This document shows, one piece after another, positions 30,671 through 60,000 of a stretch of 64,000 bases of DNA. Numbering within the stretch: position 1 is the stretch's first letter; the number at the start of each line of letters is the position of its first letter. Origin of the DNA: Blasia pusilla. Its lineage: Eukaryota. The translations under genes and the position numbers were made by a program. The stretch spans positions 44,578,001 to 44,642,000 of the forward strand of contig CM114271.1 in assembly GCA_050084515.1 (NCBI GenBank), in the 5' to 3' direction. The notes under the pieces were generated by a model. The model was not told where the DNA came from. It saw only the letters and a list, made by a program, of their open reading frames with translations, and did no database searches.

Positions 30671-30899
30671 TCCAACAAAATGAAGTGTGCTTCGCAACCC
30701 ACGTCTCTACTTCCCAAATCCTGTAACAGATTGCAACAGAATTGAATCGGTTCCAACAGAATTGAATCCATTGTTTCAGAAAATTTCACCTACCAAACTT
30801 CATCTTGTTAGTAAAATTCTGTCAGAAGTATCTGATTTCCTATTCACTATAAATTAAAAATTCTCATTCTCATTCTCACTCTCCTCCCGTACAAAATTC

Positions 30900-34896: not shown

Positions 34897-35520
34897 CTCG
34901 CCCTCAACTCAGCAAAGAACTCAACCACGGGGTTGAACCTGGGACGAACCTGACTAGACGGTGCAACTGATCTAGTGCGAGTGACTCCTCCTAAAACATC
35001 ACTAGTGGAAGAGGAAGTAGCCTCTCCTGACTCCTCCTCCTCATCTGGGAACGGCTCCTTCCATGACACATAGTGTGGGTCGTAGTAGAGTCGCCATGCC
35101 TCAATCTCCTGCGCATATCTGTGGGAGAACTCATGGTAATCGTCCATGGGTGCCCCCTCTAAATGCTAGAACATATTATTCCATGTTGTAAACGGGTTGA
35201 ACTCTCTAGAGTTCCTAGCCCGCTATGAGTCACACCAACTCCTAAACTCTGTAACGAAGTCGTGTAGCTCTATGGTGCCTACTGCACCCGAAAACCTACA
35301 CGATCCCCTAGCCCGATCGTCCATCTCGTACGCCCAACTGGTAGGACCACTCAATGTGTATGGTGGATCACTAACACACTCCTCTACACGCTCCCCCTCG
35401 TTTAAAGATGACACAGAAGAAGATCGAGGTGGTCTCTCACGTGGAGACCTTCGAAACCTCGCACCACTCCGGGTAAACCCTCCGGAGCTACTCTCAGGTC
35501 CACTACCTCACCTCTCAAAA
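34897..35520 (-). pseudogene. Gypsy gag fragment, 5' half
   Basis: RFSGAVGTIELHDFVTEFRSWCD...LEGAPMDDYHEF...FNPVVEFFAELRA; homologous to 43140-43703 and 54400-55100. Confidence 0.85.
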
Positions 35521-35898
35521 TCTTGAAAGGACGCCGTGATGGCCCTCGTGCCCGTCTTACACGATCACTCTCAACCTCACGAATAATACCTCAATCACTC
35601 ATCCCAAACATGCGGCACTCGATCTACACTCTCCCTCCCCGAGACGTATAACGTGCGGCAACAAGCGGCGTGGTGCGGCAAATCGACCAGGCTATCATCT
35701 CATCGACAACCTACCTTCAACTTTGGACATCCCACATAGGTCTATGTCCCCTAAACCACATATATAAATGATGCTCTCAGCATCCGCACAACCCAATATC
35801 CCCAAATAAACAACCAAAATCCCAGAATCCCTCACGCGTGCAGCGTAAAAGACCACAATGGGTAACCTTAACACATGTCGATGACGCTCCTCAGCAAC

Positions 35899-38838: not shown

Positions 38839-41520
38839 ATGCGGATCCCTGGACCCCTCAACGTACCCAAATCATGCATACTAAATGCAAAACAACTCCT
38901 ATAACTCCTAAGGAACTGGTGTATCTGACGCCGGTCTCCTCTTGTCAACTTAGGGCCCATATCTGGCCCCCAAGTCTCCATCGTAACTCCAGTAGGACTC
39001 TCCGGCGCGGATATCGGTGGTTGCTTTGGTGCAACCCCGTCTTCGACAATAGAACTCTCATCTACATGTGTAGTACCCGGAACGGGGGTTGATATTCTGG
39101 TAGGAGAGAGTAAGAGAGGAGAGGAAGAGAGGAGAGTCTCTCTTAAAAAAAAAGGGCCATATCCGCCTCCTCTCTTAAAATTTTTTTGACATATTTGAAA
39201 TTTTTGTTTGCTTTCAAATTCATGAAATCTTTAGAAGAGAGTAGATAGTGGTCCATATTTGGCCCTAAAAAAACCTCCTTTTTCTTGGGGGCGAAAAAAA
39301 AGTAGACATCATAAGACCACTACAAACATTTTTCCATCACCCTCCATGTGAGCCTAAGTTTCTTAACATTACCTGTCTCGATCTACAATAAGCAATGCCC
39401 ATGGGTATTTTTGTTGGAGGACCACCCGGATGCCAACCTCTCTTTTTGCAGGGATTGTTGCCTGCATCATGGCCTCCCCTAAATTGCCCCATAACCAACT
39501 TTCTGTTGGTTATGAATGGTGTCTGCTCAAGACCAACTTTGTGAAATGTGAACACATGAGAGGATAATTGAACCAAAAGATTGTTAGCTGTCTGGAGTAA
39601 AGAGGAATTGATGTCCCTTCATTCAGATCCTAAAGCAGAGAAACCGAGAACCTGCACCCCTCCCAACCCGTAAGAAAGCTCATCATAAGAAAGGAAAGAT
39701 TTTTAGAAGTGATTTTCTTCCACCCTGCACCCACGACAATCTAACAGGTTGGGAATCCGAAATGGCAATCCGACAGGTAGTAGGAATCTTGCACAACTTA
39801 GACAAGAAAAGAAGCCTACAACTGGTTTGACGAATGTAGGGGAATGAGCCAAAAGTTAAGAAGCCCGCCACAATGCGACAAAAGTTGGTCTCACAGGGAA
39901 AGAGTCCGATCACTCAAGCATCCAACCTGTCGGAATCAGACACCTTGCCTGGAAATGGTTAAAAAGTTGCAGTGGGCAAAAAGCTCAAAGTTGCAACCCG
40001 TCGGAATCATACGGGTTGCAAAATTGTAATTCCGAGTAGCTAAAATAACACAATGCACTAGTCCCAAAAAAATTTCCAGCAAACTTTTACAAACACCATT
40101 GTCGGTTGAAAAAATCTCGACCTTTATTACCTCCGAAGGAACCTCGGAAATATACATTTGACCTAGTCTATGATTTCTTCAGCCTCGTCATCTACAAATT
40201 TACTCCTAACTCTCCTCGGAGACAGTACAAAAGGAATGTCTTGGGATACAAGTGGCTCCTCTGGCCAATTGTAGACGGGGATCGAAAATGTTGGCAAATT
40301 CGAGAGCCTTGGCCCCCCCCTAAGTATGCCATAACGGTCCCATGTAACCTGATTTGAGTCTCACCGCCTTCCTCGGCAGTATACCTTGTACGCTCTGCAA
40401 TGTGACACCCATCTAGTATCAATATGTGCTCTGTCCTTGGTAATACCATTATGGCAATCGCACAGGTGTAGTAGGAATCAACACGCGTCGAGAGAAGAAA
40501 AGAAGCCTAAACGTGCGCTTTTACGAGTTGAGGGGAAGGTGCCAAGGGAAGAAGCCCGCCAGACTGCCTCTTAAATTGGACCAACATGGAAAGAGTCCGA
40601 TCAGGCAACCTGCCGGAATCGGACAGGTTGCCTGGAAGTGGTAAAAAGGTGCTCTCGTCAAAAAGTGAAAAGTTGCATGCAGGAGAAATCCGACGGGTTG
40701 CAAAATAGAAGTCCGCGGAGTACATAGACGATCACATTCGAAAAGACATAAAAAATGTTCAGCAAACTTTTACAAGCACCACCATCGTTCGGAAAAATGA
40801 TCTCCTTTATATCATCCGAAAAAAGCTCGGAACTGTACATTTGATCTATTTTATGAAATCTTTTGCCTCATCATCAAATAACTCCCTACTCCAAACGCTG
40901 CAGTCAAGCTGGATCCTTGAGTTCTTTGAACTCACTCGTCATTGTGTGAGAGCTCTTGCAAAATTACTTTCGGCCTTGCCCTCCCGATTTTCGGAATCGT
41001 TGGAAGTGACAATGGAGTCACTACCAATGGTGGGTCTGGAACCGGAGCTCTCTCCTCTCTCCTCTCTTCCTCTCTTCCTCTCCTCTTACCGCACCTCTAC
41101 CCGGAAGGAACCACGCTCAATGATGTGGCTATCATCTTCTGGCCTACCTGTAAACCATCCCAAGAAGTCCAAGGGTGTCTCTCCCGATCACCCTGGTGTG
41201 TCGATGTCATTGGGTCTCGCCCCTAGCCAGTGCCTCAACCGTCTCGCTAGGCATGGGGGTCCCCAATGCAACTTTTGTGATGTGTCGTATCCTCAAGCGA
41301 CATTGCTCAGCTACTCCTAAGCTGAAAATCCATGTCAAGCAGACCGAAGACATGACGTCGTGATGCCTCCGATAGTGACGGTACTACCGTCACTCTTGTG
41401 GGTAATCCCATCGCTCGCTCTCACTCATTGGCATTGGGCTCCACCAACCTCTGTACTTGGTTATCCCAAACCAAGCTAGGTCCGGCCTCCTTGAATGCAT
41501 AGGAAGCGGGAAAACTCACT
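38839..41520 (-). pseudogene. Fragment of a second DNMT-bearing Gypsy (MTase C-terminus to pre-RT linker), interrupted by a 2-kb MULE
   Basis: VSFPASYAFKEAGPSLVWD..LVEPNANE*ERAMG and ETWGPDMGPKL..LRSYRSCFAFSMHDLGTLRGPGIRI parallel 51000-51630. Confidence 0.8.
39085..41097 (+). mobile_element. Non-autonomous 2-kb deletion derivative of the MULE
   Basis: Both family ends are present. The TSD is TACCCGGAACG (39074-39084) / TACCCGGAAGG (41098-41108), a 10/11 match. Confidence 0.92.
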
Positions 41521-43089: not shown

Positions 43090-44345
43090 CGTTCTTTCAA
43101 GGTTCGGAAGAACGGGGCAGTGCAAGCAGTAGTAGTGGTGTGATACGGAGTGGAGTGAGATACCGAGGGGTTACGAGCGAGGAGCTACCGCGACATCCAT
43201 CCGCGGCTGGATCATTATCACTAGACATCGGGTCTCGTGACGAGATCGCAGACGGAGGCAGTATCACTTGGCAGGAGATGGACGACATGGGCCATCGGGG
43301 CATACGTCGTTTCTCGGGTGGAGTGGGCACCATCGGCTTAGATGATTTTATCCAGGAGTTCGACATGTGGTGCGACTTCCAGGAGATACGGACCCCGACA
43401 CGGTTCAACCCTTTCATGGCATGGAAGGGGTTGTTCCAGCACTTGGAGGATCCTCTGATGGATGATTATATGGAGTTTCGATCACTATATTCACTAGAGA
43501 TCGATGCCTCGAGGATGTATTGGGCTCCAAGGTATGTGTCCACTAGTGGTCACGAGGCATATGATGGGATCGTGAGAGGAGATATACCCACACCATCAGG
43601 TCGGAGACTAGATGGAGAGGAGGACTCTGAGACAGGCAATGTGGCAGAGACCTCTGGTGGTCGAGGGCCATCCAACTTCAGTCCCACAGTGGAGTTCTTC
43701 TGAAAATTGGGGAAGAGCTATCAGGGCGTACGCACCGACAAGCTGAAGAGTCTACATGATTTTCAGCGACGATCGGGTGAGAGTCTGAAAGAGGCATTCA
43801 CACGCATGAGGACGCTGATCATTGCTACGTATGGAGTGACTGAGGCGCTGTCAGTCCAGTATTGGTACGGGGTTTTGGACCGAGAACTACGGAGGAGAGT
43901 CCGAGATGCGGTGGTGATTCACATAGCGAAGCCCACATTGAAGGTGGTTTTTGAGTTGTCTAAGCGTATTGAACTCAACCTGAGTGAGGAGCAGGTAGTG
44001 ACCGCTGGATTTTCTCGAGAGTCAACGGGTCCTGGCGGCGGTGGATCGCACATGTGCCGGCGAGCACCGTACCACGGGAGCGGGCAGTGTGCCGGAGAGA
44101 GCGAGGCGTCATCGTGAGCCTATGAGGCAACAACCTGTTCCTACATATGTTGCCCAACAGGGACCGATGTTGTCTTGTTAGACGTGTGGAGGAGCCCATA
44201 GGCAGAGAGACTGCACACAGCATGGGAAAGGACCACGAGCGGCTCCGATTGCTCAAGAGCCAGAGAGGATGGCCCCACCACAATACCAGTGTGACTACTG
44301 CCACAGATATGGTCACACTAGGGATAGAGGTTTTGACCTTCGTCA
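43090..44345 (+). pseudogene. Gypsy gag with CCHC-type knuckle (same broad family)
   Basis: ORFs 43140-43703 and 43707-44117 are separated by one stop codon. A degenerate knuckle YQCDYCHRYGHTRDRGFDL follows. Confidence 0.82.
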
Positions 44346-44553: not shown

Positions 44554-46192
44554 TGCAAATCTCGACCCCAACTTGGTCGTGAAGATAACTCTTCCAATCA
44601 GCAAGTTGTACTTCTCTCGTACTGACGCTGCTCAAACCTCTTCGATGTGCGGTGCACGTTCCGCGGTCCGCTGCGGCATTGGCGGCACGGAACGGCTACA
44701 AACGACATGGCACTCGGGAATGGGGTGAGCGGCATTCCCTCCTCAATCAGAAATTCACACGCTCTACTTCTAAGTGAAGGAGCGGATCCGCGATTGAGAC
44801 GGTGCGGTCTGGCCACGGCGCGGCAATCGGCGTCGCGTTGCGGCTACGGGCGTCACGGCACGGTACTCATCCAGCAACTACCAATCACAACATAGCAACA
44901 TGAAATGAAAACTCAAATACCATAACCCGGGGTCATCTGCAATCACTGGTTGATGAAAAAATTGTGATAACGGTGGCGGCGAAACCAAAGTATGTGGTGG
45001 CGGGGCAAGTCAGAGAATCAACGGTGGTCATGGAAGACCCTCCACTCTGTAATGGCGGCAATGGCAACCAAGGGTGGACAACAACCGAACGCATCTCTAA
45101 GCAACGCTAGGCGGCGGCAGAGGCTCACAATGGATGGTGGACGGTTGATGGTAATAGTTGAACGTTGATGGTGATGGTGATGGTTGACCATTGACGGTGA
45201 CTATGACGGCAACTGGTTTAATGTTTGAATAATTTAACCTTGAAAATCATCTAGCAATGGCAGTTTTGCAAGATTGACCATAACTTTTTGCTCTCAACTC
45301 CAAATTGCACATTGTTTGTTGTATAGCGTGCACAGCTTGAGGATCTACAATGAAGTTAAAAAACATTTGAAATCTAACATTTAAGTAAAAATTGACAGGG
45401 ACTGTCGTAAAACCCAATGTCTCTTTCTCCTAAGCAAAATTCGGCAGTGCTTCCACGCTGATTTCTCCCAAAGAAAATGTAAAACCTATGAGAACACAAA
45501 TCAAAAAGCTACATGGTGCTCTCGAGAGCACCGATATGGAGCAATACGCCCCCATACTCAATTCCTATCAAAAATTGGGTAGTGCTTCCGCGTGCCACTC
45601 TTCCGTACAAAAAATCAGCAAAGCAAAACAGCAAACTCGCACGGCTCTTGCTCCGGTGAGCACTCCCATGATCCATGAAGCAGGGGACACAGTCCCCCAA
45701 CTTGTACCAAACATCGAGCAACCAGCAAGCTCCCCATGAAGCTCTCTCACGTACTCAATTTTCTCTTTGTAAAATAAGATCCAATCTCTCTCACAACACC
45801 ATAGTTCTCACATGTGTGCACTCTCACATGTCTCTCTCAATGTCAAACCAAACCCACTCTCCTAATGAGAGGTTTGGGTTACACACACAAGGCAAGCAAG
45901 ACCATAGCTCTGCCGCCTCATGCCAAGAGGTTCAACAAAGAGATAATGAGCTCTCTCTCCTTGAGGTATACCCCTCCGCTCTCCCAAGCTCTCTGCATGG
46001 TAACCTATGCTCCCAAGTCACCTCCTTGGCTCTTGACCTGATGTAAGAGGTCAAGGGCCACTTACCAAAAATATAAAGTTGATCATATACTCAAAATGAT
46101 ACTTACCTAAAATAGTAAGTTTCTCAATATGGCTCCAAATAAGCCGAAACGAAGGGGAAACCTGCTCTCTCACGTTTTATGGGGCCTCAACA
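44554..46192. repeat. Interspersed LTR-like repeat (TG...CA), copy 2
   Basis: TGCAAATCTC...GGCCTCAACA, homologous to 35899-38838. No TSD. Confidence 0.6.
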
Positions 46193-47307
46193 GGTCATCC
46201 ATGATCTATTGAGCCTATTCTACACCAATCACGAAGGCGCTCTACTAGATCTCACCGATCTATCCTAAAAGACGTGACATGCTCTTGTTTATGAGAGGAT
46301 TGTGGCTCATTATAGTATAGGTGTTCATGAGAGGGTCGTCACTCATTATAATATAGATGTTGTAAGGGTTTGAAATGATGCCATGTCGGAGAGCTTCCTA
46401 GCATAAAATGAAAAAAGTTGCCAAAAATCATCGAAATAAATACTTTTGTCGAAAATTTCTTATATTGAAACGTTGGTGGAATTAACAAGATTCGTAGTCA
46501 AATTCTGCAATATAGTACCCTTATCTCTGGAGAGCATTTCTTCATATGGGTAGCATGTGTCTTTATACAAACCCCACAAGGAAAAAAACATTTGAGGTTG
46601 AAAATTCAGCTAAGGACAAGCAAACAACACAGTTGAAATAACTAAAGAATGGTAGAGGGAGGTTGTGTGAGAATCATAACTATTGTTCCATCATATTACG
46701 ATGTTAAGAAATTTCATATCGATATATGTTTAATTTTTGTGACTTGAAACTCTTTCATGTTACTACATTGCAAAAAATTGAGTTGGTGAATCATAATCTA
46801 GTGCGTATGTGAGCCTAGCACAAAGATCCACATCTAGAACTCATTAATGAGAATGGTTAAAAAAACCATAAATTTTTAGTGTTTTACATGATATAATTGA
46901 GTCAACGAGAGCTTTACTTTGTGTCAAAAGTAAGCAAATAATTTTCTTGTGGAAGCTTTTGGGATGACAGTCTTCATCCACCATTCTTAAAGAAGTCAAA
47001 CATCGATTGCAACACCAATAAACAATTTTAGGTGGTAGATATGGTTTTTTATTCACAAAATGGATGAAGTCCAACCTATCACCATTTACTACACAAAATG
47101 GGAAGGAGGAAAATCCTTCTCATTATCAGATATCCTAAATATCTTGATCGGTTCATCTGATCAAACTCCAAAAGTATGGAATTCAACGAGTACTTCTTAG
47201 TTGATTGCAAGAAGATTTTGGTATAAGTTTGTAGATTGCTCTAAGTGGAATGTATGTCTGTCTAACTATGTTCAATGGCATTCAATACAATAGAAAGTAG
47301 TAGTAGT

Positions 47308-47414
47308 TGTTGTGCGAATCCACATCGTCATACAACATACATCGTTGACATACCATACTCACATACGTACATAACATAGACGAGAGTATCCACAAACGCA
47401 AGTGTACCACAACT
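47308..47414. repeat. Repeat A, terminal copy (107 bp)
   Basis: Identical to 47784-47890 except for one substitution that I can see. Confidence 0.96.
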
Positions 47415-47416
47415 GG

Positions 47417-47781
47417 AATCCGTGAAAGACCTACTGTCATAAAACACGTTTACAATCACATACAATCGAGCCAAACCCACTCCACGATGGGAGAATCCAG
47501 GTCGAAGCTTGCGGGAAACACCATAGCCAAGAGCTCTACTCACTACCAAGGCTAACTCCCAACGCAACAGGCTCAACTCAAAGAATCGACTATTCTTTGA
47601 GTGCACTCCACCTTATATCCTCCAACTTAAGAGCGGGCCCTACTGGGAAACTCACCCCCAACTGAGTAACCCCCAACCCTATGTATGGAACCGCATCTCT
47701 ACCAAGCCACTACGGTCCTACATAAGGAATGTCCTCTACTAGCACACTATACTCTACGACATAATCTGTATGGTCATGACA
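47417..47781. repeat. Repeat B, internal copy (365 bp)
   Basis: Matches 56731-57095 with about 8 substitutions, counted by eye. Confidence 0.96.
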
Positions 47782-47783
47782 GC

Positions 47784-47890
47784 TGTTGTGCGAATCCACA
47801 TCGTCATACAACATACATCGCTGACATACCATACTCACATACGTACATAACATAGACGAGAGTATCCACAAACGCAAGTGTACCACAACT
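47784..47890. repeat. Repeat A, internal copy (107 bp)
   Basis: Direct repeat of 47308-47414, joined to B through ATGACA-GC-TGTTGTG. Confidence 0.96.
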
Positions 47891-48064
47891 CGCCCCCTAA
47901 TGGCGGTTAGGTCCTCTAACTCCCAGGTAGCCCTATACATCTACTACATGCTATACACCTTCTTGGGTGCCCGAATCGAAGGCCGGGTGCTAGGTTGCCC
48001 CATCGTTAGTCGCACATCCGTAATCCATATCATGCAAAGATCAAGTCATCTACCTCTCCTAAGT

Positions 48065-48198
48065 ACATCGAGGACAAACCCACCTTCCAAAGAGGAACGA
48101 CATCCAAACGTGGAGTCAAACACATCATGTGCCAACCCCTAGAACACCGATCACACACCAACATACGGGTGCGTTACAGCAGACCCACACAACATGCA
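48065..48198 (-). pseudogene. PHD finger at the integrase C-terminus (not in the ORF track)
   Basis: Manual translation across two frameshifts gives CMLCGS...MLVCDRCSRGWHMMCLTPRLDVVP.GRWVCPRC, a complete C4HC3 pattern. Confidence 0.88.
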
Positions 48199-48299
48199 CC
48201 TCAAGCTAGCACGTATCATGGCTAAGCTTGGGTCAACAAGATACCATCCACATTTGGAAGATGACATGGCGCACAATTACGCAATGGTCCTTCCAAACA

Positions 48300-49400
48300 A
48301 CTCCATCACGACCCTCCAATATGAGAACTCCAGAAGCTAACACCTCGCGACTCGTAAAATAGTGCGGCTGCCGTCACATCCAACGTTGTCGGGGCAATCT
48401 GCTGCAAATAGACATAGTCCCCACATGGAACCTCTAATCGATGGTCGATAACCTCCACCTCGAATGGTTGCATACCGCAACGTATCCTGTGTTGAACAAT
48501 GGCAAGATTCTCAAAGGTGTTGGCATAACTCTCCGAAAGAGCTCCGCCGCTGAGAACACACCTCATCCACATCTCGGGTCATCAAGGTTCACCACCTCAC
48601 TAGACTCCCGACAATTCTTGCTTTGGCAAGTCCGGATCTCGGCCGTATATAAAAGTAAGGTGAGAAGGAAGCCAAGGATGCTTGGCGGCGAACCTATACC
48701 CCATGGCTAACCATGGCAATCTGAATATCCGGTCTCAAGATGCCCCCCCTTCAGAGGGCCATACTTGCGCAATGCCCTCTTCACCGTCTCAACCACACGC
48801 TCGGCCAAACCATCCGCCTCTGGATGATCTCGAGACGTGGTCCGATGATCAATCAACGCCTTGTCACACAAGACCTGAAACTCACCAAACTCAGACGTAC
48901 CCTGGTCAAAGACTTCAGCTGGTGCACCAAAATGACTAAGCACTCTATCCGAAACGCATACGCCGTTCCTCACTCGCCTTGTCCGGTAATGCCACCAACT
49001 CAATCCACTTGGAGAAGTGCTCCACCATCACCAACACATATCGATGATGTAAATAGTCAACCAGCATTAACGGTCCCGCAAAGTCCACACTCCAACGGTA
49101 ACCCAACCCCATAATAGGCAAGGGGTGTAATTGTGGTGTAGGGGCATTAAATGATGCCCTCACCCGGTCACAAACCATACAACGTGACACCAACTGATGC
49201 ACCTGAGTATGCATGCCACGCCACCAATCTTGGCCAAGGAGTAAGCTATACGACGCTTTACCCCAAAATGTCCCAACTCCTCATGGGCATGTCGCACAAT
49301 GCTCTCTCTCGAGCCAAATGTGGCACTACTCGTACTCTACTATCCTCCCACACGCGGAGAATATGTGTTCCCTCCAATCGATACCTCTTAGCACGTTGAA
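48300..49400 (-). pseudogene. Retroviral-type DDE integrase
   Basis: VSRCMVCDR (zinc domain), LHPLP..GLGYRWSVDFAGPL, FGAPAEVFDQG.EF and DHPEADGLAERVVETVKRAL. Confidence 0.93.
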
Positions 49401-49689
49401 GAACACGGTCTCGCTCCTTGGCACTCACTATGCCTGGCACCCTACCGGTCCGTAGGAACTCCAACACCAACGCATCATCATGAATATCACGCTGATCTGT
49501 ACCACCATCTCCAACCTTAGGATCGAAGGTGGCCATCTACCCTCGACTAGAGTAAGATATCATGTGGTCCTCCATACTAGAGTCCACCCCTAACCAACAT
49601 AAAAAGGCGGATGCATGCCAACCTGGCACCATCTCCTCATCAACCTCGCCATGCCATCTAGCCCCTGTTGTATCCTCTTGGCTAGTACA

Positions 49690-51000
49690 TGGGTTCCTAC
49701 TCAACCCATCAGCATCAAGGTTGGCAACTCCAGGTCTATGTACCACCCGGAAGTCATACTCTGTAAGATAAGAGCCCACCGTGCAAGCTTCCTGTAAGCT
49801 TGTCCGACTCCATCAACCACTTGAGCGGTTGGTGATCGAGAACAAGGGTAAATTGGGTGCCAAACAAGTAACACCTAAAGTGTGCCATGAGCCCACACTC
49901 TTGCCAAGCACTCTCCCTCATATGAACTATAGCGCGACTCCGCTGCATTATTCGAACGACTTGCATAGGCCACCACAAACTCCATGTGCTCATCATCATG
50001 TTGTGTCAACACCGCTCCAAGTCCCAACCTACTCCAATCAGTGTGTAACTGAAATGGGCGCCCTCTGATAGGTCTCCTCAAGATAGGCGCCGCCACCAAC
50101 TGGGCCTTAAGCTCCACAAAAGCTCTCTCCTGATCATCTCCCCAGTGCCACTCTTGATATGATTTCAGCAATTGGTTCAAAGGCTTTGCCATAGCACTAA
50201 ATCCCTTCACATACCTCCGATAGTAGTTCGCCAATCCCATGAATGCTCGAACTCTACTCACATCTATCGGACGCGGAATAAGTGCAATAGCCTCCACCTT
50301 TGCTTGCTGAACTCCCAAACCACCTGGATAGATCACATGACCCAAGTACTCAACATCCTCATGGAAGAACTTACACTTTCCTGGATGCAAACGTAGACCA
50401 TGAGCCTTCAACCGCTCAAACACCATCTGCAAATGTATCGATGCTCCTCCACCGTGTTATTCTTGAACACCAAGATATCATCAATGTAACAAGAACAAAA
50501 TCCAACCCCTGCTAGGATCTCCGTCCATCACTCTTTGAAACTTCGGCAGGTGCATTCTTCAACCCAAAGGGTAAGAATTTCCTTTGGTACAAACAATCCT
50601 TGCCATGAGAGTTGACACCCCAAAATCTTGTCTTGGCCTTGTCACTCTCCCGAATCGGCAATTGATGGTATCTGCCGAAGATCAAAATCTTGAAAATCTT
50701 TACTGTCCCACCACATCAAAGATCTCCTCGGTGTAGGCATGGCATACCTATCGGCCTTGGTTTTCCGATTGATAGAACGGTAATCTCCACACATCCGCCT
50801 ATCCGTGTAGTTGCCATGCATATCCTTTTTAGCGAGGCATGACAATGGTGATGCATACTCTCCATGCGACAACTCCACTAATCCGCCTCCAAAGGTCCAA
50901 CGCCCTACTGAATCAAGTCCCTCTCCATATCACTATATCGGTAGGGACGACGGAAGATTGGCGTATCACTAGCCAAATCAATCCGTATACCGGGTCCAAC
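49690..51000 (-). pseudogene. Reverse transcriptase and RNase H (Ty3/Gypsy)
   Basis: RMCGDYRSIN..DRYAMP, LPFGLKNAPA, YIDDILV (~50470), LHPGKCKF..VEYLGH, LHTDWSRLGLGAVL, DHQPLKWL and RPGVANLDADGLSR. Confidence 0.96.
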
Positions 51001-51379
51001 CAGAGAACCCAACTCCTTCATGCTAAAGGCCAAACAACTCCTATAAGCACGTAGGAGGCGTGTGTCAGCGTCGTTTCTCACCTCCCGTAGCTTGGGCCCA
51101 AGTAATGGCTCCCAAGTCTCCTCCCTTTGGCACACTAGAGGGGAGGGGCGATGCCATTGGTCTGCTCATAACCCCCTCACAAGATGGTACACCCTTAGCT
51201 ACACCATCATCGAGCAAATAACTCCTCCACCAAAGCATGAGCAACCAACTCCACATGCCCGACCATTACATCCCATTTACTCCAAGGATGCAAAATACTA
51301 CTCTCCTCGCCTTGGCCGATGCCTCTACCGTCCGGTAGCCATCGAGCTCATTACAAGGGGTGGAAGACCCCCAGACATA

Positions 51380-52401
51380 GTCCGAAGTCGACGCATTTTG
51401 CTCGGCCATACCAAGACTCAAAATCCAAGTCAAACAATTCAGGTCCATGGCCTGACCCAACACATGATGTCGTGAAGCCTCGAAATAGAAGCAACTGGGC
51501 ATTTGTCACACCGAGAGCAAATCCCATCGCACGCTCTCTCTCATCAGCGTTAGGCTCCACCAATGTCGCACATGAGAATCCCATACAAGCCCCGGACCAC
51601 CTTCCTTGTAGGCATGTGACGAGGGAAAACTCACAAATGTGGGTAGTGCCATCCTAGGCTAGCCCACACGGTTCACCTTGCCATGGGTGACCGATCAATA
51701 ACCCTCACCACTTGAGAAAGTCGCCCAAAGATATCAAGATACTATCCTTTGTAAAGCGAGGATCGCACCGCATCATATGCTCGACGTAGAACCTCCCTAG
51801 GCAACAAGTTTGTCCACCACAAGCGTGGACGATGTGCACGCGAGCCAACTCGCGCTGCATCCAACAACACCACTGGTCCAATCCAAGACCGCACCTCATG
51901 AACACTCGCCATCATCCGGGTTCGAGTGTCACCCAACAATGGAACATTCTCCAGAATGTAAGCTAGAGCACGTGTCTGATGAACCTGAAGATGTCGTAAC
52001 ACCCGTAACATCTCCCAAAACAATCGAGACCTAGGGTCATGTAATCCCTCACCACGACCAGCACGTGTATGACCCTGACATGGCCATCCAGCAATCACCA
52101 AATCCACAGGACCAACCCTCTCAAGGTCCTGCGCCCCCAACAATGCAATGTGTGATGGTAAAGCACGCTGGTACCCACGAATAGCTGATGGCGGCAACAA
52201 CTCAGGATATCTCCGCATCAACTGACCAATATGTCGGGATGAGACTCTCTGGGCCGTCTCATCTCGCTCCACATACACGTATCTCCCATGACAGAATACC
52301 GGCTGCAACATCGCCGCCAAACCGGTGCTAATCCCACCAAAGAGATCTAACACACAAATGCCCTCCGCGGATCTTTGCCATACAATGGGTGTAGTATCCA
52401 A
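51380..52401 (-). pseudogene. C5 DNA cytosine methyltransferase domain (DNMT3-like) inside pol
   Basis: Motif I is VLDLFGGI, II is YVERD, IV is AGWPCQG, VI is ILENV and VIII is RAHRPRLWWTN. IX (EPNADERERAMGF) and X (RHHVLGQAMD) follow after frameshifts. Confidence 0.93.
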
Positions 52402-52849
52402 AGGGGATAACCAACTGGGCAGAAGTAGGAGTCCGCCGTGGGGCGTCCTCTTCCTCGTGAGGTATATGACCTCACACCAAGCCTCTGCACTAGGCGATCA
52501 CCCTCTGCCGTAGTGCACCGCTGAACTCCAAAGTGGCACATCCAACGATGAGGATGCCTTTGCTGCAAAAATAGGGACCTCCTCTACCTCCTCATGCGCA
52601 GGAGAATCCATAGCGTAAAACATTACCCTCCAAAAAGTCTCTGGCCAAGTGACTACTCCACTAAAACCAGCCACAGATGCTAACATGCTTTGTTGGGGAG
52701 ACCCTCTGGTCGAGCCCCATAAATAAATCTCATAGGAACTTGGCTCATACGTCCATCCCGGACTGCCAACCAGGTCTCAGAAGATTTGTCTCGACCCGAT
52801 AATCCATCCGAAAACCCATCGGGTACAATAATCATCGCTCCTCCAACTA

Positions 52850-53200
52850 GTACATCATACGACTCGGTGATGTGACTATCGTGAGATACTCCCAACCGGG
52901 AGCTATCGGTCGCATGATCTGGTCTCAAATCAGAAAAACTTTTCCCGTGTCATGAATTGAGACCTATCATTGGCTCCTCCAAGTGATGTTTGAATTTGGA
53001 ATGGGCAAGGCTCAAGCTCTGACCTCCGAATACCCAAACCAATACATGCCGCCTTTCCCAACATCAAAGGTTGGGCACGAGAGTCTAACAAGACTCTATC
53101 TGGTCTATACACCTGTCCTGTAGGACTCACCAATCGGAAGATCCCACTCCGGTTGTCCAACATACATACACCAGGTGTAAGCCTCTCACGATCAATGGCT
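52850..53200 (-). pseudogene. Aspartic protease
   Basis: RVLLDSRAQPLMLG is a DSGA motif with G replaced by R. A downstream YDVLVGG is also present. Confidence 0.75.
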
Positions 53201-53959
53201 GGCCGGGCTGGTAATGCATCCATCTTCGCCGCTGCTGCCTGCCAAGTAGCATTGGTACTCAATGCTACTCCTGACATAGAGGGTCGCTCCACCGCAACAC
53301 CCTCATCCACCTCAACACGTGTAGCAGTAACACCCCCACGTTCACACAACGTGGCTGCTAACTAAAATACAGGAGCTAAGTCAACTCCTAAAGCCATCAG
53401 CTCCGTGGCCGGAAAAAATGGGGATCCCAACACCGAAATTGCCATCCATAATCTTGTATTGAATCTTTGCATCCGTGTCTACTACACGCGATGTAGATGC
53501 CTCAGTCCCCACTGTCGGCTCAATAGGCTGCGTAGGAACCATGGATGGAGTCCTAAGCACCTCAGACAACAAGAATGACTGGGGAAGCCTAGCTTGCCTC
53601 CCAGCCTCACCCCTCTGTGGGTCCAACTCCTGAAGAGCACCACGTGGCTCGACGCTCGAGTGGCTCCTCTCAGAATCGCGGTGATGCCTCACCTTTGTCT
53701 TTGCACTCGCCATATAAGAGAGATCATCCCCTCCATAAGAGGTGGAAGCCCTTGCTCCCGAACCTGATCTATGCTCGATACCGACCATAGTAGCCAACCT
53801 GCTCCAATCTGCTCAATCTGGCAGCCATAGGCGACTTGTCGAGTGGTAGGGGTAGCCACCGTAGGCTCTCCAACCACCTGGTCCACCTCTACCACCCCTA
53901 CCACCTCTACCACCTCGGCCTCTCGGAGCTACTCCACCACGGCCACGGCTTGATCTCAA

Positions 53960-55200
53960 CTCGGATGGAGATCAAAGCAACGCTCTCGAGGATGATCTAG
54001 TCTCCGCAATGATCACACTTGAGTTGGGGCCGACGAGGCCCATCCTCCAAAGTCCGTCTCCCATCCTCTTGGGGACAAAACTTCCTAACATGATCACCTC
54101 CACATGTCCAACATGATCGCCCTTGGGGCAGCAAATGAAGGCAATGGTCTCTGCACAAATGTCCCTCTAGGACTTGACGAGGTCGCGTGTACCCCCACGA
54201 CTCCCACTACTACTACCACCACCACTACTACGAGACTGTGGTGAGGGTGGGTGCTGAACCGAGAAGTAGTAGTTGTATCCCTCTTGAATGCGGATGTCAC
54301 CACTCTCTCCTTCACCATGTTAAGCTCAATCTTCTCGAGATAAAGCAAACACATGGGTCAATGTGGGTGAATCATCACTCATAAGAGTAGCATCACGTAC
54401 CCCTACGGCGCAAATCTCTGTCCAAGATCCTGCATTAAAATCGATGCTGATCCTCGGTCACACCAGGTAATCGAAATCAGCGTCGATACAGTGTATGCCT
54501 CACGAAGACTCTCACCAGTCTTTCGCTCAAAGTCTGAAGATTCCTCAACTTCTCCGTCTTCACTCCACGATAGTTCTTCTTCAACCTCTTGAAGAACTCT
54601 CGCAACCGGGCTGAACGATGGTGGGGCACTAGTACCTCCACTAGTACCCCCACTAGTACCTCCACTTTGGTACCCCCCACTCCGGCTCGTACTGCACCAC
54701 TCAACGTCGGGTTGGTGGCATAGTAGGAGCACTACTACCAATACCACCATGGGTGATAGACACATAGCCTGGAGACCAATATTGTCTCCATGCCTCAATC
54801 TCAACAACATGGTCCTTCCTAAACTCATGGTAATCATCCATGGGTGGTCCTTCCAAGTCTTTGAAACAACCCCTTCCAAGCCAAGAAGGGTGTAAACAAC
54901 GCGTGGCGTTCCGCAACACATCGCATATCACACCACGTATCAAACTCTTGCATGAAGTCCTCCAACTCAATGGTGCCCACTTTGCACCGAGTATCGTGGT
55001 GGGCCCTTCATGGCCCCATATCCACCGTCCATGTCCCAAATCAATGGAGCGCAACACTCGATAACAACGTAGAAGACTCGGTGTTTGGAACACCCTGGTC
55101 CTCCTCTTCATCAACCGTCGGAAGTGGAAAAGGTAGCCGATACCTAAATCCAATCCGTGTGAAACCACCCTTTATCCGCACCACGGTCCCCAACGAGACC
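53960..55200 (-). pseudogene. Gag with CCHC zinc knuckle
   Basis: LEGPPMDDYHEF, REFFKRLKKNYRGVKTEKLRNLQ, and a KCDHCG..DHPRERC knuckle near 53975-54020. Confidence 0.82.
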
Positions 55201-56730
55201 ACCCGACAGCTACGTGATGACCAACGCCGATGCCGCACCACCACCAAATTACCCAAGTGACGTCGATGTCGCTCTACTATTGTAGCTCTACTAGCTATGG
55301 GTGTAGGCAATCTAACCTCTCATCACCACAAGAAGTCTCCCCACGTCTCATCTGGTCATCACTCCGGCCTCACTATCGTGAGCACCACAGGAGTAACACT
55401 ACTCGGAAATCAGCGTCAACCCTAACAATGGGCGCAAGCAAAAAGCACGATGGAGGGGATCGCATACAGAAGTCCAACGACAACCCTCCAACCGCAAATG
55501 GAAATCAAGATAACACAATCCACCAAACGTGGTGCCCCCTGAATCCACAAAACCCACCACACAATTCTAACGCAATAGCTACTCCGCCGCGGGTCGATGA
55601 CGTGCTAGTCGAACTCGCAGCACCTGAAAATATCACTTGCATGGAGAGGCTACACCGTACTATGCGCTAGAGGTACATCAACCAAAAACCTGAGATGCAT
55701 AAAGCGCCTAACACATCTCCAAACACCACCAAATGAGCTACAACAGTCTGTACACTGGCATAGTTAAGAACTCAGCAGTTAAGCGTCCTCTAGGCAGAAG
55801 AGCCCAAAGATGGGTGACCAGTTATGCAAAACTCAAATCCCAAATCCTGCAAAAATTGCCTCACGCCCAAGCAAGCAAGCTTGCTTGCTTGCTCCTTGCT
55901 CCTTGCTCCTTGCTCCGCCTCTCACGCCCACTCGCCCCGAGCTACCACGAGTTGCCTCAAATGCTCGAGACATGCCCCTATCGCCCCGTTCCCCACGCTT
56001 CGCCATGCTTCGCTATGGAGAGAGGTCCAACCAGGGCGCCCCCAATGGGATAGGCGTCTCCAACAATGAACGAGTCACCAACCAACCAGCCCCTCCGATC
56101 CGCTGTCCACCATAGCCAAACCTTGAGCTAGTCCGCGAAATTTCGATCAGAAATTACTTCACAAATACGTGACCGAAATCAAATCTATTTCGATCAGAAT
56201 TCAATTGACCACCATAGCTATCTCCCCACAAAAACTCAGCTACAACCAAGCTCCGTACTCTGAGCTAAAAATCAGACAAACTTGCTGTCCATACACCTCT
56301 AGAACCGCAAATCCGACAGCGCTTCCGCCAAGTTTCATGCACGCAGAAATCCGCAACGCTCCACGCACTCGAGCAGATAGCTTCACATGAGATCACAATA
56401 CAAGTAGCAATAGGAACCTCTCACCTGATCTGGATGAACTTCAACAGAGCTTCCGCACTCCAAGCTCTCCACATCAGAAAACTATCGAACACGAACCAGA
56501 ATCTTCAATGCTTGATAACTTCCAACTCCCTTGACGAAATCGGCGATCTACAGCACGTTGGAAAGCTCTCAGCAAGGCGCTTCTTTCCCAACTGACCACG
56601 CACCTGATTCACACCTCCAGCATAGGCAACAAGCCCCGAACATCCACGGCTGAGTACACAATCAGCCCTAACCAGATCCTACTGATCTACAATCGAAGCT
56701 ACCATCGATCTACTCCAATTCTTTGAGTGA

Positions 56731-57095
56731 AATCTGTGAAAGACCTACTGTCATAAAACACATTTACAATCACATACAATCGAGCCAAACCCACTCCACG
56801 ATGGGAGAATCCAGGTCGAAGCTTGCGGGAAACACCATAGCCAAGAGCTCTACTCACTACCAAGGCTAACTCCCAACGCAACAGGCTCAACTCAAAGAAC
56901 TGATTGTTCTTTGAGTGCACTCCACCTTATATCCTCCAACCTAAGAGCGGGCCCTACTGGGAAACTCACCCCCAACTGAGTAACCCCCAACCCTATGTAT
57001 GGAACCGCATCTCTACCAAGCCACTACGGTCCTACATAAGGAATGTCCTCTACTAGCACACTATACTCTACGACATAATCCGTATGGTCATGACA
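56731..57095. repeat. Repeat B, terminal copy (5' end of the element)
   Basis: Matches 47417-47781 and ends ATGACA|TAGT. No adjacent copy of repeat A. Confidence 0.96.
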
Positions 57096-60000
57096 TAGTC
57101 TCCTTTCTACACCTTTTTATGCTACATTGTTCTAGCCACATTAGTAGAAAAAAATTGATCTCTATGCAAAACTACCACTTAGGAGATCTATTGTGAACTT
57201 AGGTAGTGCTAAGGTTTAGAGTATAGACCATTCCTATCTTTTACCATTCCCATAATTTTTGGCCAATTCAAGGCATCACATGTGGTGACTAGCATTACAA
57301 GACTAACTCTGAAAACTAAGCCTCTTCTTAACTTGCACCAATGACTAGTAGAGCATGAAGAGTTAATTTGTGGGACAACTTCAGAGATTAAGGTATAAGT
57401 ATTTCATCACAAAAAAATTCAACTCGATTGATCATGTCAATATGGATGGAACATTAGTTAGAGGTCTTCTTGGTTTAGTCCTCGTCCTCTTTTTCTTATT
57501 GAGAACTCTCTTTCTCACACAATAGAAATTGGCACAACTACATCATCATATATTTCCATTGTTTCCACAAATCATAATACGTTCTTTATCAGGTGTTGGT
57601 TTGGAAAACTAGAATCTCTTAGTGCTTAAATGGGTTGTGGGAGAATAGCCACATTGAGATGGAGAATACATCAATAGACTGTTGAAACATTTCTTCTATC
57701 AAAATCCAATCAAGAGTCAAGTTACTCCAAGGAGTTGTTTAGAGCATAATGGAGCACGAGAAAGATTGAATGTGTTGGACCTAGTTTGATCTAACTAGGT
57801 CTAACACAACAACCTAGCTTATTACATGGGCATTCGAGGAGTCCAACCTATTCTACTCGAAAAGCCCAAGGGTCTTACCAAGGCTAATACTGATTTTGCA
57901 TCGAACAAAAGAACATGCCTAGCTATTGCAAGGAACTTATAGACGTGAAAATTAATCTAAAAAACTTTGGAATATGATCGCAAGGACAATTACGCACCTA
58001 AGGGTACAAAAGGGTTCTACATGAAGGATTCTCCACTCTTGCAAAAATGGAAAAAAAAAAAGGATTGACTACCACTTATAAACCTGAACCAAGGGACAAA
58101 TTGCTTATCTCATATGGAAATACCATAAAAAAAAGGAAATGAACGATATGGGTGGTGGTTATATTCGTTAGATGATCCAATAACCACTAACATTAGTGCC
58201 AAAGTACTAGAACAAGTAAATAGGATGCATAAAATGAAGTTATTATTGTAGTTGGAAACTAATCATGTTGCTTTTTTTGCATTTGAGGCCTAACCACTCT
58301 TGGAAAACCAATCAACTTAAAGGGTCAGCCTATTGTTATGCAACAAAAGGTAAAGAAGGACCAGCAAGGCAGGAAAATAACTTTGTAAATGGTTGTATGG
58401 GATCCAATGGGATCTCTTCTTCGAAGTCAATCAGATGAAAAAGATATTATTATATGGCACATATGGAACTGGGTTTCGGTTACTCAAGGCAAAAGGACCA
58501 TGGGAAAATGCACTTGCATTCAGGTTTTTCCTACATGAGGCTTGGTTTCCATATGGGGGTTTCATTTCAACAACTTATGGGTTCTAGGAACCAACTTATA
58601 TTAATTATACTAAAATAGGAGATTGGTGAATATCATTTGATTTTTGGTGGGCTCAACACCATAATAGTTGCAATGACAAATAAGCAATGTTTCAAGGAGG
58701 GTCTGACACCAAGAATATGATGGTGCATGCTTCCAACAACAATGTGCTCTTTGCTAGTCTGATTCCATGTTTGCAATAGTTAGAACCTATGAGAAGGCCT
58801 AAACATTCATGAGTGCACTCTAGAACCTTCACAAGACATTCACAACCCAGGTTGCTTGCTACCTTGTGAGAGCATTTTGGTTCAATGAATTATGTATGTA
58901 ACAGCATGTTGGGAAATTTTTAGTCATGTTAAGTCACTGTATCCACATTAGATGATCCTCTATTATTCATGCACAAGAGACACTCAAGTTGAAGTACAAA
59001 AAATATGAGATTGGAAAGCCTCCAAATGTGTACAATTAGAAAACACTTGTTTCATTGTGGCGACACGAAGCTGATGTTGTGGATATTGGATGGTCCCTAG
59101 ACAACTCCATGGTTACAAATGGAGTTTAAACAAGAATTTTTTGGTTTCCTAGTGGTTTCTATGTTGTAAAATATTGAAAATATTTTAGATCTCCAAGGCC
59201 ACCATTAACTAGTAATTTGAAACACATGGTACCCTTAGACTAATCTTGTGTCAGGCTTGTAACCATAGACTTGTACTAAGCAGATAGACAATGTGACCCT
59301 TTAGAAATTAAATGATCAATACATAGGGTACTTGCTAAAGAGATAACATCTATGTTATTTAAACTCTAGCTGCTATGTCTACGAGTGCATAGTTAACATC
59401 TACTTATACCTTCCTCATCTTTTTAGAATATTTGAATTAACTTTCATAGGCTTATCATCATTTGGATGTATAAACAGACTTCAAAATTTTCCAAAAGGCA
59501 CTTGAGTAGTATGATCCTAACAAGCTACATTTGGCTTTGGTAGAATCTATAAGCCCACTGAGAAAAATTCAACACAATGATCTCCAAGTTCAACTACTCA
59601 AGGAAGGTACGCATGTGGGCTCCATCATAATTTATGTGGCTACTTCCAAGAATAATAAATGAAAGCTTTATCGACCTAAGATATATTGGAAACAACTCCT
59701 CATCAATGTGTGAGGGTGTGTGGCTAAGGTACATTCAAAAGCTTCTAAAGAGGGGTGCTACTCATAAACTTTGAATATAATGTCAAAGAATAAGGTTTGA
59801 TTTGTCTCACTTTGTGAAATTCAAAGGACTATAACGTCGAGCGACATACAAGTGTAACCATATGGAGTGATAATTCAAAGGGATCCCACTACTCCACCCA
59901 CTTCAAAGCAAGCTTCTTAGATCCTATAAGAAGGAAGTCCAAATTTTATGTCGAGAGTAGATTGGATTGGCATTGAAGCTATCCATACAACAAAGTTAGG

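Follow-up and report, generated by a model that had tools for sequence, protein, structure and literature searches.

How a retrotransposon with a DDE integrase comes to carry split direct repeats is the question raised by an element in the window, that is, the whole stretch of 64,000 nucleotides of Blasia pusilla DNA analysed here. Based on our data, this element is best explained as a dead member of the streptophyte 'Gypsy-DNMT' retrotransposons, with the coding order gag, protease (PR), C5 DNA methyltransferase (DNMT), reverse transcriptase (RT), RNase H, DDE integrase (IN) and PHD finger.

Layout and coding content of the element

Self-blastn, a repeat search and direct reading gave the minus-strand order TAGT|B(368)-leader-gag-PR-DNMT-RT-RNaseH-IN-PHD-A(107)-GC-B-A|TAGT. 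Read along the plus strand, the left TAGT is followed by A1 (beginning TGTTGTG), B1 (ending ATGACA), the spacer and A2 (again beginning TGTTGTG), then by the internal part (47891-56727), by B2 (ending ATGACA) and by the right TAGT. In coding orientation the element runs from TGTCATG to CACAACA. The split-repeat topology, the outer ends and the 4-bp TAGT duplication had all been proposed in a preliminary description of the locus, and each was confirmed. The repeats and their flanks are as follows; at each B/A boundary, a single base could belong to A as well as to B.

47304..47307, no strand: target-site duplication (TSD) TAGT, 3' side in coding orientation, equal to 57096-57099
47308..47414, minus: A1, terminal short-repeat copy with the element end ...CACAACA; 99.1% identical to A2 over 107 nt (98.2% over 110 nt, 47305-47414 against 47781-47890)
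47415..47781, minus: B1, internal long-repeat copy, starting TGTCATGACC; 97.6% identical to B2 over 368 nt (47414-47781 against 56728-57095)
47782..47783, no strand: spacer GC, 2 bp, centre of the near-palindrome CACAACA-GC-TGTCATG (direct reading)
47784..47890, minus: A2, internal short-repeat copy (self-blastn, repeat search)
56728..57095, minus: B2, 5'-terminal long-repeat copy, opening the element with TGTCATGACC (self-blastn, repeat search)
57096..57099, no strand: TSD TAGT, 5' side in coding orientation

Every reading frame of this copy is broken, the longest spanning 251 aa, and the copy is therefore old and dead. Its coding remnants nevertheless follow the Ty3/Gypsy (Metaviridae) order PR-RT-RNase H-IN, with the DNMT inserted between PR and RT (Pfam, tblastn).

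48102..48191, minus: PHD finger remnant after the integrase (Pfam PF00628, E 1.8e-4, below cutoff)
48707..49330, minus: DDE integrase, H2C2 zinc domain and catalytic core, frameshifted (Pfam, translation motifs, tblastn to P0045 and P0049)
49537..51138, minus: RT and RNase H (Pfam RT_RNaseH_2, E 5.7e-25, RT_RNaseH and the RVT_1 tail; YIDD motif; tblastn to P0008)
51231..52497, minus: C5 cytosine DNA methyltransferase, between protease and RT (Pfam PF00145, E 7.2e-10, 39.2 bits, cutoff 22)
52930..53361, minus: protease-like region, LLDSRAQPLMLGK aligned to LLDSGAQPLMLGK of homologues (alignment, tblastn), with no match in the Pfam search
53471..55032, minus: gag region, degenerate (tblastn to residues 1-511 of P0001)

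The methyltransferase motifs DLFGGISTG, GWPCQG and ENVP can be read in translation. Among the matches listed, this domain is 71-77% identical to bryophyte proteins, and the proteins nearest to the element come from Marchantia, Calypogeia and Sphagnum. In the homologous region of another copy, L001, the PHD finger matched PF00628 with an E of 2.6e-9 (37.4 bits). Both the methyltransferase and the C-terminal PHD finger had been overlooked in the preliminary description.

The A1-int-B1-A2-B2 topology is shared with PAT and Ngaro (PMC4157794) and could point to a DIRS/PAT/Ngaro-type element that integrates through a circle by means of a tyrosine recombinase. However, no match to Phage_integrase (PF00589) was found in any of the six frames at E <= 0.01. 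A DDE integrase is present instead, as had been claimed: Integrase_H2C2 (E 1.4e-4) and rve (E 1.1e-3) were matched, both below curated cutoffs in this copy, the D, D and E residues are legible in translation (WSVDFAG / VFDQGTSEF / DGLAERV), and homologues carry PF00665. Moreover, the element has TG..CA ends and 4-bp TSDs, and tyrosine-recombinase retroelements are not known to make TSDs. A tyrosine-recombinase element is thus extremely improbable.

Recurrence of the arrangement in other copies

In total, six elements were compared, five of them from short-read metagenome contigs. L001 is a complete element of the same layout, flanked by the TSD AAGG. Its B copies are 92% and its A copies 94% identical, and its repeats are therefore not an assembly duplicate. 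L005 and L014, also on metagenome contigs, have the 3' end A-NN-B-A, NN being the 2-bp spacer. In L003, B-int-A lies within the TSD ATTA and the NN-B-A part is missing; a 1-LTR-circle product, recombination between the A copies or an assembler skipping the repeat loop would fit this structure equally well. Taken together, A-NN-B-A forms the 3' end in four of the five elements where it was observed, and flank|B-leader the 5' end in four of four. The two identical terminal LTRs of Ty3/Gypsy elements were not found in the window copy, L001, L005 or L014, in which the integrated form is B-int-A-NN-B-A.

All three elements with two observed ends have perfect 4-bp TSDs at the start of B and the end of A (TAGT, AAGG and ATTA), and the ends across copies read TGTCATG...CACRACA, that is, TG..CA with a terminal inverted repeat TGTCATG / TGTCGTG, the TSDs lying in the 4-6 bp range of Ty3/Gypsy. 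The concern that TAGT might be a chance match within a (TAG)n run is answered by AAGG in L001 and ATTA in L003, found at the same element ends. The A/B junction, read previously as both integration ends abutted around a 2-bp spacer, has the same form in four of four copies, the spacers (GC, GC, AT and AC) differing by transitions only. Contigs from three organisms, sequenced in four runs, contain the junction as well. In X4, a run of an organism other than that of the window, it has the same form (B end, GC, A start), with the loose end GCTGTCGTGC after 57095, and X1 yielded at least eight variant junction contigs.

The broken frames of the window copy, in a region rich in other repeats, might suggest a one-off rearrangement or a misassembly of an ordinary LTR element. 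This is refuted by the recurrence of the layout in L001, L005 and L014, which come from other assemblies and have diverged repeat copies. The junction contigs of the four runs and the description of a Klebsormidium nitens element (PMC5890265) also speak against it, and we give it next to no credence. It is somewhat less far-fetched, but still very unlikely, that the structure arose by nested or tandem insertion, with a short, solo-LTR-like B-A derivative landing beside a B-int-A unit, or the reverse. Each unit does have TG..CA ends, and B-int-A alone occurs with its own TSD in L003. Nevertheless, the gap between the units is exactly 2 bp in four of four copies, with no internal target duplication, and in the window copy and L001 the outer TSD encloses the whole composite; separate insertions would not hit the same base every time. 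The split-repeat arrangement B-int-A-NN-B-A is the family-wide genomic form, and the check for such a layout with 4-bp TSDs elsewhere, called for in the preliminary description, was borne out by L001 in full and by L005 and L014 at the 3' end.

Putative priming signals and a proposed origin of the permuted form

Signals that could direct reverse transcription are found at two boundaries, namely before the internal A and after the 5' B.

47891..47899, minus: polypurine-tract-like AGGGGGCG, directly 5' of A2 in coding orientation (direct reading)
56718..56728, minus: putative primer-binding position ACTCAAAGAAT, reaching from the final base of B2 into the leader (complementarity, fold)
56890..56900, minus: GTTCTTTGAGT in B2, able to pair with the primer-binding position; proposed 5'-terminal 11 nt of the RNA (complementarity)
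56925..56931, minus: TATA-like TATAAGG, 31 nt upstream of GTTCTTTGAGT (direct reading)

The motif AGGGGG(G)C(G/A) abuts the internal A on its 5' side in all five copies concerned (window, L001, L003, L005 and L014). The bases right after the 5' B are CTCAAAGAATTGG, with no TGG directly there; the first TGG lies 11-19 nt downstream across copies, and direct reading of the copies revealed no tRNA-complementary primer-binding site (PBS) adjoining the 5' repeat. In three of four copies, a motif inside B is the exact complement of the 10, 15 and 10 nt that follow the 5' B, a match reached by 9, 0 and 17 of 2000 shuffles, which is only moderate for two of the copies. In the fourth copy, 10 of 11 positions pair, one of them with a compensatory change from C:G to U:A; this copy fails the exact-complement statistic (619 of 2000 shuffles). 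The TATA-like box precedes the GTTCTTTGAGT-type motif by 30-32 nt in all four, and minimum free energy folds paired nt 1-11 with the PBS position in three. Since the copies are related, their conserved polypurine tract (PPT) and primer motif are not independent evidence. From these signals we infer the RNA start site (from the TATA-like box), the primer and the definition of the LTR. The earlier suggestion of priming without a tRNA is consistent with these signals, complementarity and fold indirectly favouring self-priming; the element may alternatively use internal-tRNA priming in place of a PBS adjoining the 5' B.

A route to the genomic form can be proposed. Transcription would start in the 5' B, about 31 nt past the TATA box. 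The RNA would fold back with its initial 11 nt on the sequence just after B and prime the minus strand in a Tf1-like way, and the plus strand would begin at the PPT just before the internal A. With a PPT at the internal A and a self-complementary primer site at the 5' B, LTRs of the form A-GC-B are expected from reverse transcription, the product of which would be a linear cDNA with an ordinary A-GC-B LTR at both ends. Every such LTR would hold both integrase recognition ends abutted, in a palindrome that was ancestrally perhaps CACGACA-GC-TGTCGTG, and nicks after each CA, on the two strands and 2 bp apart, would produce ends resembling 3'-processed retroviral ends. A joint would form between the U5 end and the U3 start of this cDNA, either beforehand in a 2-LTR circle or by host end-joining after strand transfer, while the integrase would open the palindrome of the upstream LTR and insert the ends with a 4-bp staggered cut. 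The predicted product is B-PBS-int-PPT-A-GC-B|A between a 4-bp duplication, a permutation that would keep a complete R-U5-PBS...PPT-U3-R transcription unit. In four of four copies, the B|A joint is as long as a U5 end plus a U3 start should be, with no extra bases. The genomic form would then equal a head-to-tail joined (2-LTR-circle-like) cDNA opened inside the repeat.

We consider this the best explanation as a whole, that is, a Gypsy-DNMT element whose A-GC-B LTR cDNA is joined head-to-tail and opened at the internal palindrome by the integrase, and we put our confidence in it at about even, its mechanism being read from the anatomy. The earlier proposal that the element integrates from a circle junction fits the same anatomy with a modification. 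The abutted-end site would lie within each reverse-transcribed LTR, and what every cycle would newly create is a B|A junction, not A-GC-B. Since a symmetric 2-LTR circle would contain the palindrome twice in identical form, the permutation B-A-NN-B-int-A would be expected equally often. It was seen in none of the five informative elements, a one-sidedness that the circle-opening model does not explain. Linear ends are the substrate otherwise known for the integrases of LTR elements.

A single permutation in five of five informative elements is what would be expected of a directional reverse-transcription route. In such a route, unusual priming or template switching would directly make a linear cDNA starting with B and ending with A, the internal A-NN-B would be a template that bridges or restores, much as the internal complementary region is in DIRS-1, and the DDE integrase would use ordinary linear ends, with neither circle nor end-joining. 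TG..CA ends and 4-bp TSDs are the outcome of linear-end integration (PMC12440569), and DIRS-1 cannot do without its internal region and has mostly linear cDNA (PMC7192593). On the other hand, there is no purine-rich tract before B1 and no primer site after A, where the palindrome itself lies. It is at the other pair of boundaries that the PPT-like tract, which is conserved, and the self-complementary primer site are found. The transcript would run from the 5' B to the poly(A) site in the 3' B, so that the B|A joint, excluded from it, cannot be templated, and no stepwise route to the observed product could be written. We regard this directly made linear cDNA as possible but doubtful.

Comparison with known systems

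The element shares with PAT-like, Ngaro and DIRS elements the split direct repeats A1-int-B1-A2-B2 and an internal copy of the joined ends. It differs from them in having a DDE integrase in place of the tyrosine recombinase, TG..CA ends, 4-bp TSDs and RT and RNase H of Gypsy-type Pfam families.

Like Troyka, it belongs to a Gypsy-related lineage with unusual termini. As described in Kojima (2025; PMC12440569), Troyka is an LTR retrotransposon with 3-bp TSDs and CG..CG termini; identity with Troyka was rejected, given the 4-bp TSDs and TG..CA ends of the present family. Troyka had been put forward as a split-repeat Gypsy relative lacking integrase, and as described by Kojima it has neither trait.

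The absence of a tRNA-type PBS, together with a predicted RNA 5' end complementary to the sequence after U5, may be common to this family, Tf1/Sushi and the plant Tcn1 clade. In Tf1, self-priming involves 11 nt and an RNase H cut. Self-priming has also been predicted for moss Tcn1-clade elements (PMC6317226). Unlike these, the window element has a PHD finger and not a chromodomain after the integrase (no chromodomain match at E <= 1 in the three sense frames of the 3' regions of the window copy and L001), a DNMT domain and permuted repeats.

The closest precedent, overlooked in the preliminary description, is KnitGypsy-Dnmt3 of K. nitens, which combines Gypsy domains, Dnmt3 and DIRS-like repeats, its terminal repeats being 'the same as that of a DIRS retrotransposon' (de Mendoza 2018, PMC5890265, Fig. 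4c legend). A 2026 preprint treats 'streptophytes (Gypsy-DNMT3)' as known. Both elements have a Gypsy-type Pol, a C5 DNA methyltransferase within the polyprotein and DIRS-like A-coding-B-A-B repeats, likened by description only; the hosts are bryophyte-like in one case and an alga in the other. No protein named for K. nitens was among the 58 and 120 matches listed, and the account of KnitGypsy-Dnmt3 in de Mendoza (2018; PMC5890265), in its parts on this element, is silent on termini, TSDs, spacer, PPT/PBS and mechanism. The combination of Gypsy, DNMT and permuted repeats is thus already in print once, for an alga.

Finally, two abutted integrase ends, palindromic and with a short spacer, are also found at the junctions of retroviral 2-LTR circles and of IS3/IS30-type circles. 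IS circle junctions have spacers of 2-3 bp. Cleavage of the palindromic junction between the LTRs of 2-LTR circles is known for the integrases of foamy virus and HIV-1 (PMC1180852, PMC1905944). Those junctions are made by circularisation, whereas the abutted-end site of the window element would be hard-wired in every LTR and inherited, and the newly formed joint would be U5|U3 (B|A).

Split repeats as a family property

In the window element, find_repeats and self-blastn of 47200-57200 against the window recovered two pairs of direct repeats, a short one (A) and a long one (B).

Direct repeats of the window element
47305-47414 and 47781-47890, minus strand: repeat A, two copies, 98.2% identical over 110 nt
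47414-47781 and 56728-57095, minus strand: repeat B, two copies, 97.6% identical over 368 nt

Direct reading of the plus strand gives the order TAGT, TGTTGTG..A1, B1..ATGACA, GC, TGTTGTG..A2, internal region, B2..ATGACA, TAGT. All coding potential lies on the minus strand, so that in coding orientation the element reads B2-leader-genes-A2-GC-B1-A1, with the termini TGTCATG... and ...CACAACA and a 4-bp duplication on both sides. The layout given in the preliminary description was right to the base. The longest stop-free frame is 251 aa, and the copy is therefore dead.

A scan of metagenome contigs with an alignment of five homologs yielded 16 loci; the five layouts below were established by self-comparison, cross-blast and direct reading. 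Together with the window copy, the sample comprises six elements, all mutually related.

Layouts of related elements in metagenome contigs
L001: AAGG, B 1676-2017, internal region, A 10238-10350, GC, B 10350-10691, A 10693-10805, AAGG
L003: ATTA, B, internal region, A, ATTA; without the spacer-B-A part
L004: flank, B, leader
L005: A, AT, B, A, flank; 5' end beyond the contig
L014: A (internally deleted), AC, B, A, flank

Every 5' end observed (4/4) passes from flank into B and leader, four of the five 3' ends read A-spacer-B-A and then flank, and the target site duplication (TSD) is a perfect 4 bp in all three elements with both ends seen. The split-repeat layout is therefore a property of the element family. 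It recurs complete, with its AAGG duplication, in L001, where the two copies of B are 92% identical to each other and those of A 94%. The concern that the window copy might be a one-off rearrangement or misassembly is removed by the like layouts of L001, L005 and L014; that its TSD might be a chance product of a (TAG)n run is ruled out by the three perfect duplications. The mirror permutation, B-A-spacer-B-internal-A, was found in none of the five informative elements.

The family is also present in raw sequencing data. Window element 31-mers occur in runs from at least three organisms and, when contigs of four runs were aligned to the element, one run (X1) held 251,621 pieces of the family, which is thus very abundant there. 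At least eight variant contigs from X1 connect the end of B to the start of A, and in X4, from a different organism, the loose end after 57095 reads GCTGTCGTGC, that is, the GC spacer followed by the A start. Joints that start at 57092-57094 and lead back to either 47314-47323 or 47788-47791 fit B1-GC-A2 and a canonical 5' A-GC-B alike, B1 and B2 being near-identical. No joint from LTR to internal region appeared among the 15 joints (of 34) and 12 between-letter rows (of 55) that were listed, a lack which, with listings so limited, carries no weight.

No relative was found in a scan of viral contigs, and a scan of genome contigs gave a single distant one at 33% identity (L017; CADCWO010000201.1, 9285 bp), which encodes a gag-PR-DNMT relative and belongs, as deposited, to a cyanobacterial metagenome-assembled genome. 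The contig begins and ends with the same 127 nt, indicating a collapsed circular assembly that is uninformative on repeat layout. No further copy was found in the genome behind it, and the contig most probably represents a eukaryotic retrotransposon that was assembled into a circle and wrongly binned.

The whole window is rich in repeats. Beside the studied element, direct repeats at 38026-38302 / 45358-45634 (83%) and 38595-38838 / 45949-46192 (90%), about 7.34 kb apart, resemble the paired LTRs of an ordinary LTR retrotransposon, and weak similarity to the studied element (69-75%) is seen at 43322-43540, 41404-41519 and 38837-38904. Several direct repeats on a kilobase scale (88-96%; 1030-4116 versus 25585-33353 and 12227-14813 versus 34193-40320), spaced by about 29.28 kb and by about 22.0-25.6 kb, may represent a segmental duplication or else very large elements bounded by long terminal repeats. 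At 28026-28375, 29989-30580 and 4835-6113 lie tandem arrays whose units measure about 64, 67 and 348 bp. On the L003 contig, a stretch of 650 bp situated upstream of the element (2162-2812) is 72% identical to a portion of the element's own coding region (11086-11729) and is a fragment of a second related copy nearby.

Ends, internal junction and candidate priming sites

In all copies B begins with TGTCATGACC and A finishes with (T/C)GCAC(A/G)ACA, the two forming an inverted repeat (TGTCATG versus TGTCGTG). Flanked as they are by 4-bp TSDs, the start of B and the end of A are the ends handled by the integrase. They match usual LTR elements, described as having TG..CA ends and TSDs of 4-6 bp (PMC12440569).

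At the internal junction both element ends are abutted across a 2-bp spacer in all four copies (GC, GC, AT and AC). Each variant departs from CAGCTG by one or two transitions, from which it follows that the ancestral junction was a perfect 16-bp palindrome, CACGACA-GC-TGTCGTG, with a spacer that is inherited rather than remade in each cycle. As the spacers differ, we considered whether they could be IS-style footprints of the parent's flank, an explanation rejected as unnecessary because every change is a C>T or a G>A transition. Contigs from X1, X3, X4 and X5 likewise differ from the window copy (47000-57400) mostly by transitions; in X1 we counted G>A 85, T>C 80, C>T 62 and A>G 51, with 12-26 for each transversion class. 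Such a spectrum fits the decay of a methylated repeat.

In five of five copies the internal A is immediately preceded, on its 5' side, by a polypurine tract, AGGGGG(G)C(G/A), which is absent 5' of B1, at the start of the terminal unit. Immediately after the 5' B stands CTCAAAGAA(T/C), which together with the last A nucleotide of B is complementary to GTTCTTTGAGT within B. The exact complement measures 10 nt in the window copy, 15 nt in L001 and 10 nt in L003, lengths reached by 9, 0 and 17, respectively, of 2000 mononucleotide shuffles of each B. In L004 it is only 7 nt, which 619 of 2000 shuffles attain; there 10 of 11 positions pair, and a two-sided change (ATTC / GAAT) preserves a pair. The GTTCTTTGAGT motif is found 30-32 nt downstream of a TATA-like box in four of four copies. 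As the copies are related, the conservation of these motifs is non-independent evidence. With the RNA start predicted from this box and placed at the motif, the minimum free energy fold pairs nt 1-11 with the site after B in three of four copies. Self-priming in Tf1 has the same geometry, with the RNA start paired to a site after the 5' repeat. Self-priming has been predicted for the moss Tcn1 clade (Neumann et al. 2019, PMC6317226). Finally, if B is counted as far as the primer site and A is taken to begin at the polypurine tract, their summed length is exactly that of the B|A joint in four of four copies.

A possible route of integration

From the positions of the polypurine tract and primer site, textbook reverse transcription would yield a linear cDNA with A-GC-B LTRs, in which U3 would be A, GC and the first ~195 nt of B, and R-U5 the remainder of B. 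The integrase ends would then already be abutted within each LTR. Nicks after each CA on the two strands, 2 bp apart, would produce two recessed CA-3'OH ends with 2-nt 5' overhangs, shaped like 3'-processed retroviral ends. Foamy virus and HIV-1 integrases have been reported to cut palindromic LTR-LTR junctions (PMC1180852, PMC1905944). If, as we suppose, it is the upstream LTR whose palindrome is used, and the U5 end of the cDNA is joined to the U3 start, either in a 2-LTR circle or by host end-joining after transfer of both cut palindrome halves to the target, the product would be B-PBS-int-PPT-A-GC-B|A with a 4-bp TSD, exactly the observed form. This permutation would retain a full R-U5-PBS...PPT-U3-R unit, from the promoter in the 5' B to the 3' B, the last A being required solely as an integrase end. 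The B-int-A form of L003 would be expected from a 1-LTR circle or from cuts at both palindromes, but could also derive from A/A recombination or assembly collapse.

On the anatomy of the elements, integration by such a permuted 2-LTR route might as readily prove right as wrong. It leaves the missing mirror permutation without explanation, which would be accounted for by its main rival: a different route of reverse transcription that would make the linear B...A ends directly, with the internal A-spacer-B as restoring template, by analogy with the internal region of DIRS-1 (PMC7192593). Such a route, however, would lack primer sites at the places required and could not template the B|A joint, and we regard it as rather unlikely. 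Returning to the permuted 2-LTR route, it is possible, though we advance this only tentatively, that throughout a green-lineage clade integrases of the retroviral (DDE) type normally use an inherited palindrome of abutted ends inside each LTR, every functional insertion being a permuted 2-LTR circle.

Coding content and relation to known elements

ORF pieces and six-frame read-through translations of the window element matched the Pfam domains RVT_1, RT_RNaseH_2 (E 5.7e-25), RT_RNaseH, Integrase_H2C2 and rve, and the integrase D, D and E are legible in WSVDFAG, VFDQGTSEF and DGLAERV. All six frames, translated through their stops, were free of tyrosine recombinase matches in Pfam (E <= 0.01). 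Two domains absent from the preliminary description were also recognized: a C5 cytosine DNA methyltransferase (PF00145; E 7.2e-10, over the curated cutoff) and, after the integrase at 48102-48191, a PHD finger (PF00628) whose match, weak in the window element, is stronger in the corresponding part of L001 (9302-10237; E 2.6e-9). By tblastn with homologs, the order is gag, protease-like, DNMT, RT, RNase H, IN, PHD. Proteins of Marchantia polymorpha, Calypogeia fissa and Sphagnum are 71-77% identical to the window DNMT piece, which marks the host as bryophyte-like. Chlorophytes commonly carry another, distant architecture, RT-RNase H-DNMT-IN-PHD (147 matches; Haematococcus, Monoraphidium and Chromochloris among the carriers). 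This large chlorophyte clade shares the IN-PHD end and has its DNMT between RNase H and IN.

A Gypsy element combining DDE integrase, DNMT and DIRS-like repeats is already in print for one alga. KnitGypsy-Dnmt3 of Klebsormidium nitens carries a Dnmt3-type domain in its Gypsy Pol ORF (de Mendoza et al. 2018, PMC5890265), and the legend of Fig. 4c equates its terminal repeats with those of a DIRS retrotransposon. Our literature search found no further paper under that name and no other description of split repeats in an element with DDE integrase; a 2026 preprint counts 'streptophytes (Gypsy-DNMT3)' among known cases. We class the window element as a bryophyte-type addition to this known kind. 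Of the earlier interpretation, the DDE integrase, the lack of a tRNA-type primer site next to the repeat and the relevance of the abutted ends hold, while the headline novelty is cut by the 2018 report. Troyka, mentioned in the preliminary description as a split-repeat relative without integrase, was rejected as a comparison: it is a lineage of LTR elements whose TSDs are 3 bp long and whose termini are CG..CG (PMC12440569).

The available text of PMC5890265 is silent on the mechanism of KnitGypsy-Dnmt3 and on its termini, TSD, spacer and primer sites. Neither there nor in the literature search did we find an earlier description, for such elements, of TG..CA ends with 4-bp duplications, of a palindromic junction with a fixed 2-bp spacer, or of a polypurine tract and self-primer placed so that the LTR of reverse transcription and the unit of integration are out of register. 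To our knowledge, this anatomy of junction, TSD and primer site and its reading as a permuted 2-LTR form are new, and the termini, junction and priming sites make the DIRS-like oddity interpretable. Marchantia polymorpha, a tractable model, has long open reading frames of the Gypsy-DNMT family (P0001, a homologous protein of 1278 aa), which makes the question testable at the bench.

If true of a whole green-lineage clade, the proposed route would give retroviral integration from circle junctions, a route long abandoned, a natural example, and would be an independent origin of split direct repeats, without tyrosine recombinase. If right for the present family, it would show that such repeats can form with no tyrosine recombinase, and would link LTR-element integration, retroviral circle-junction cleavage and the abutted-end chemistry of IS elements, which are usually handled apart. 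Whereas chromoviruses carry a chromodomain after the integrase, the window element and L001 have a PHD finger in that place, and its combination with a DNMT recalls how reader and writer are paired in host Dnmt3 enzymes.
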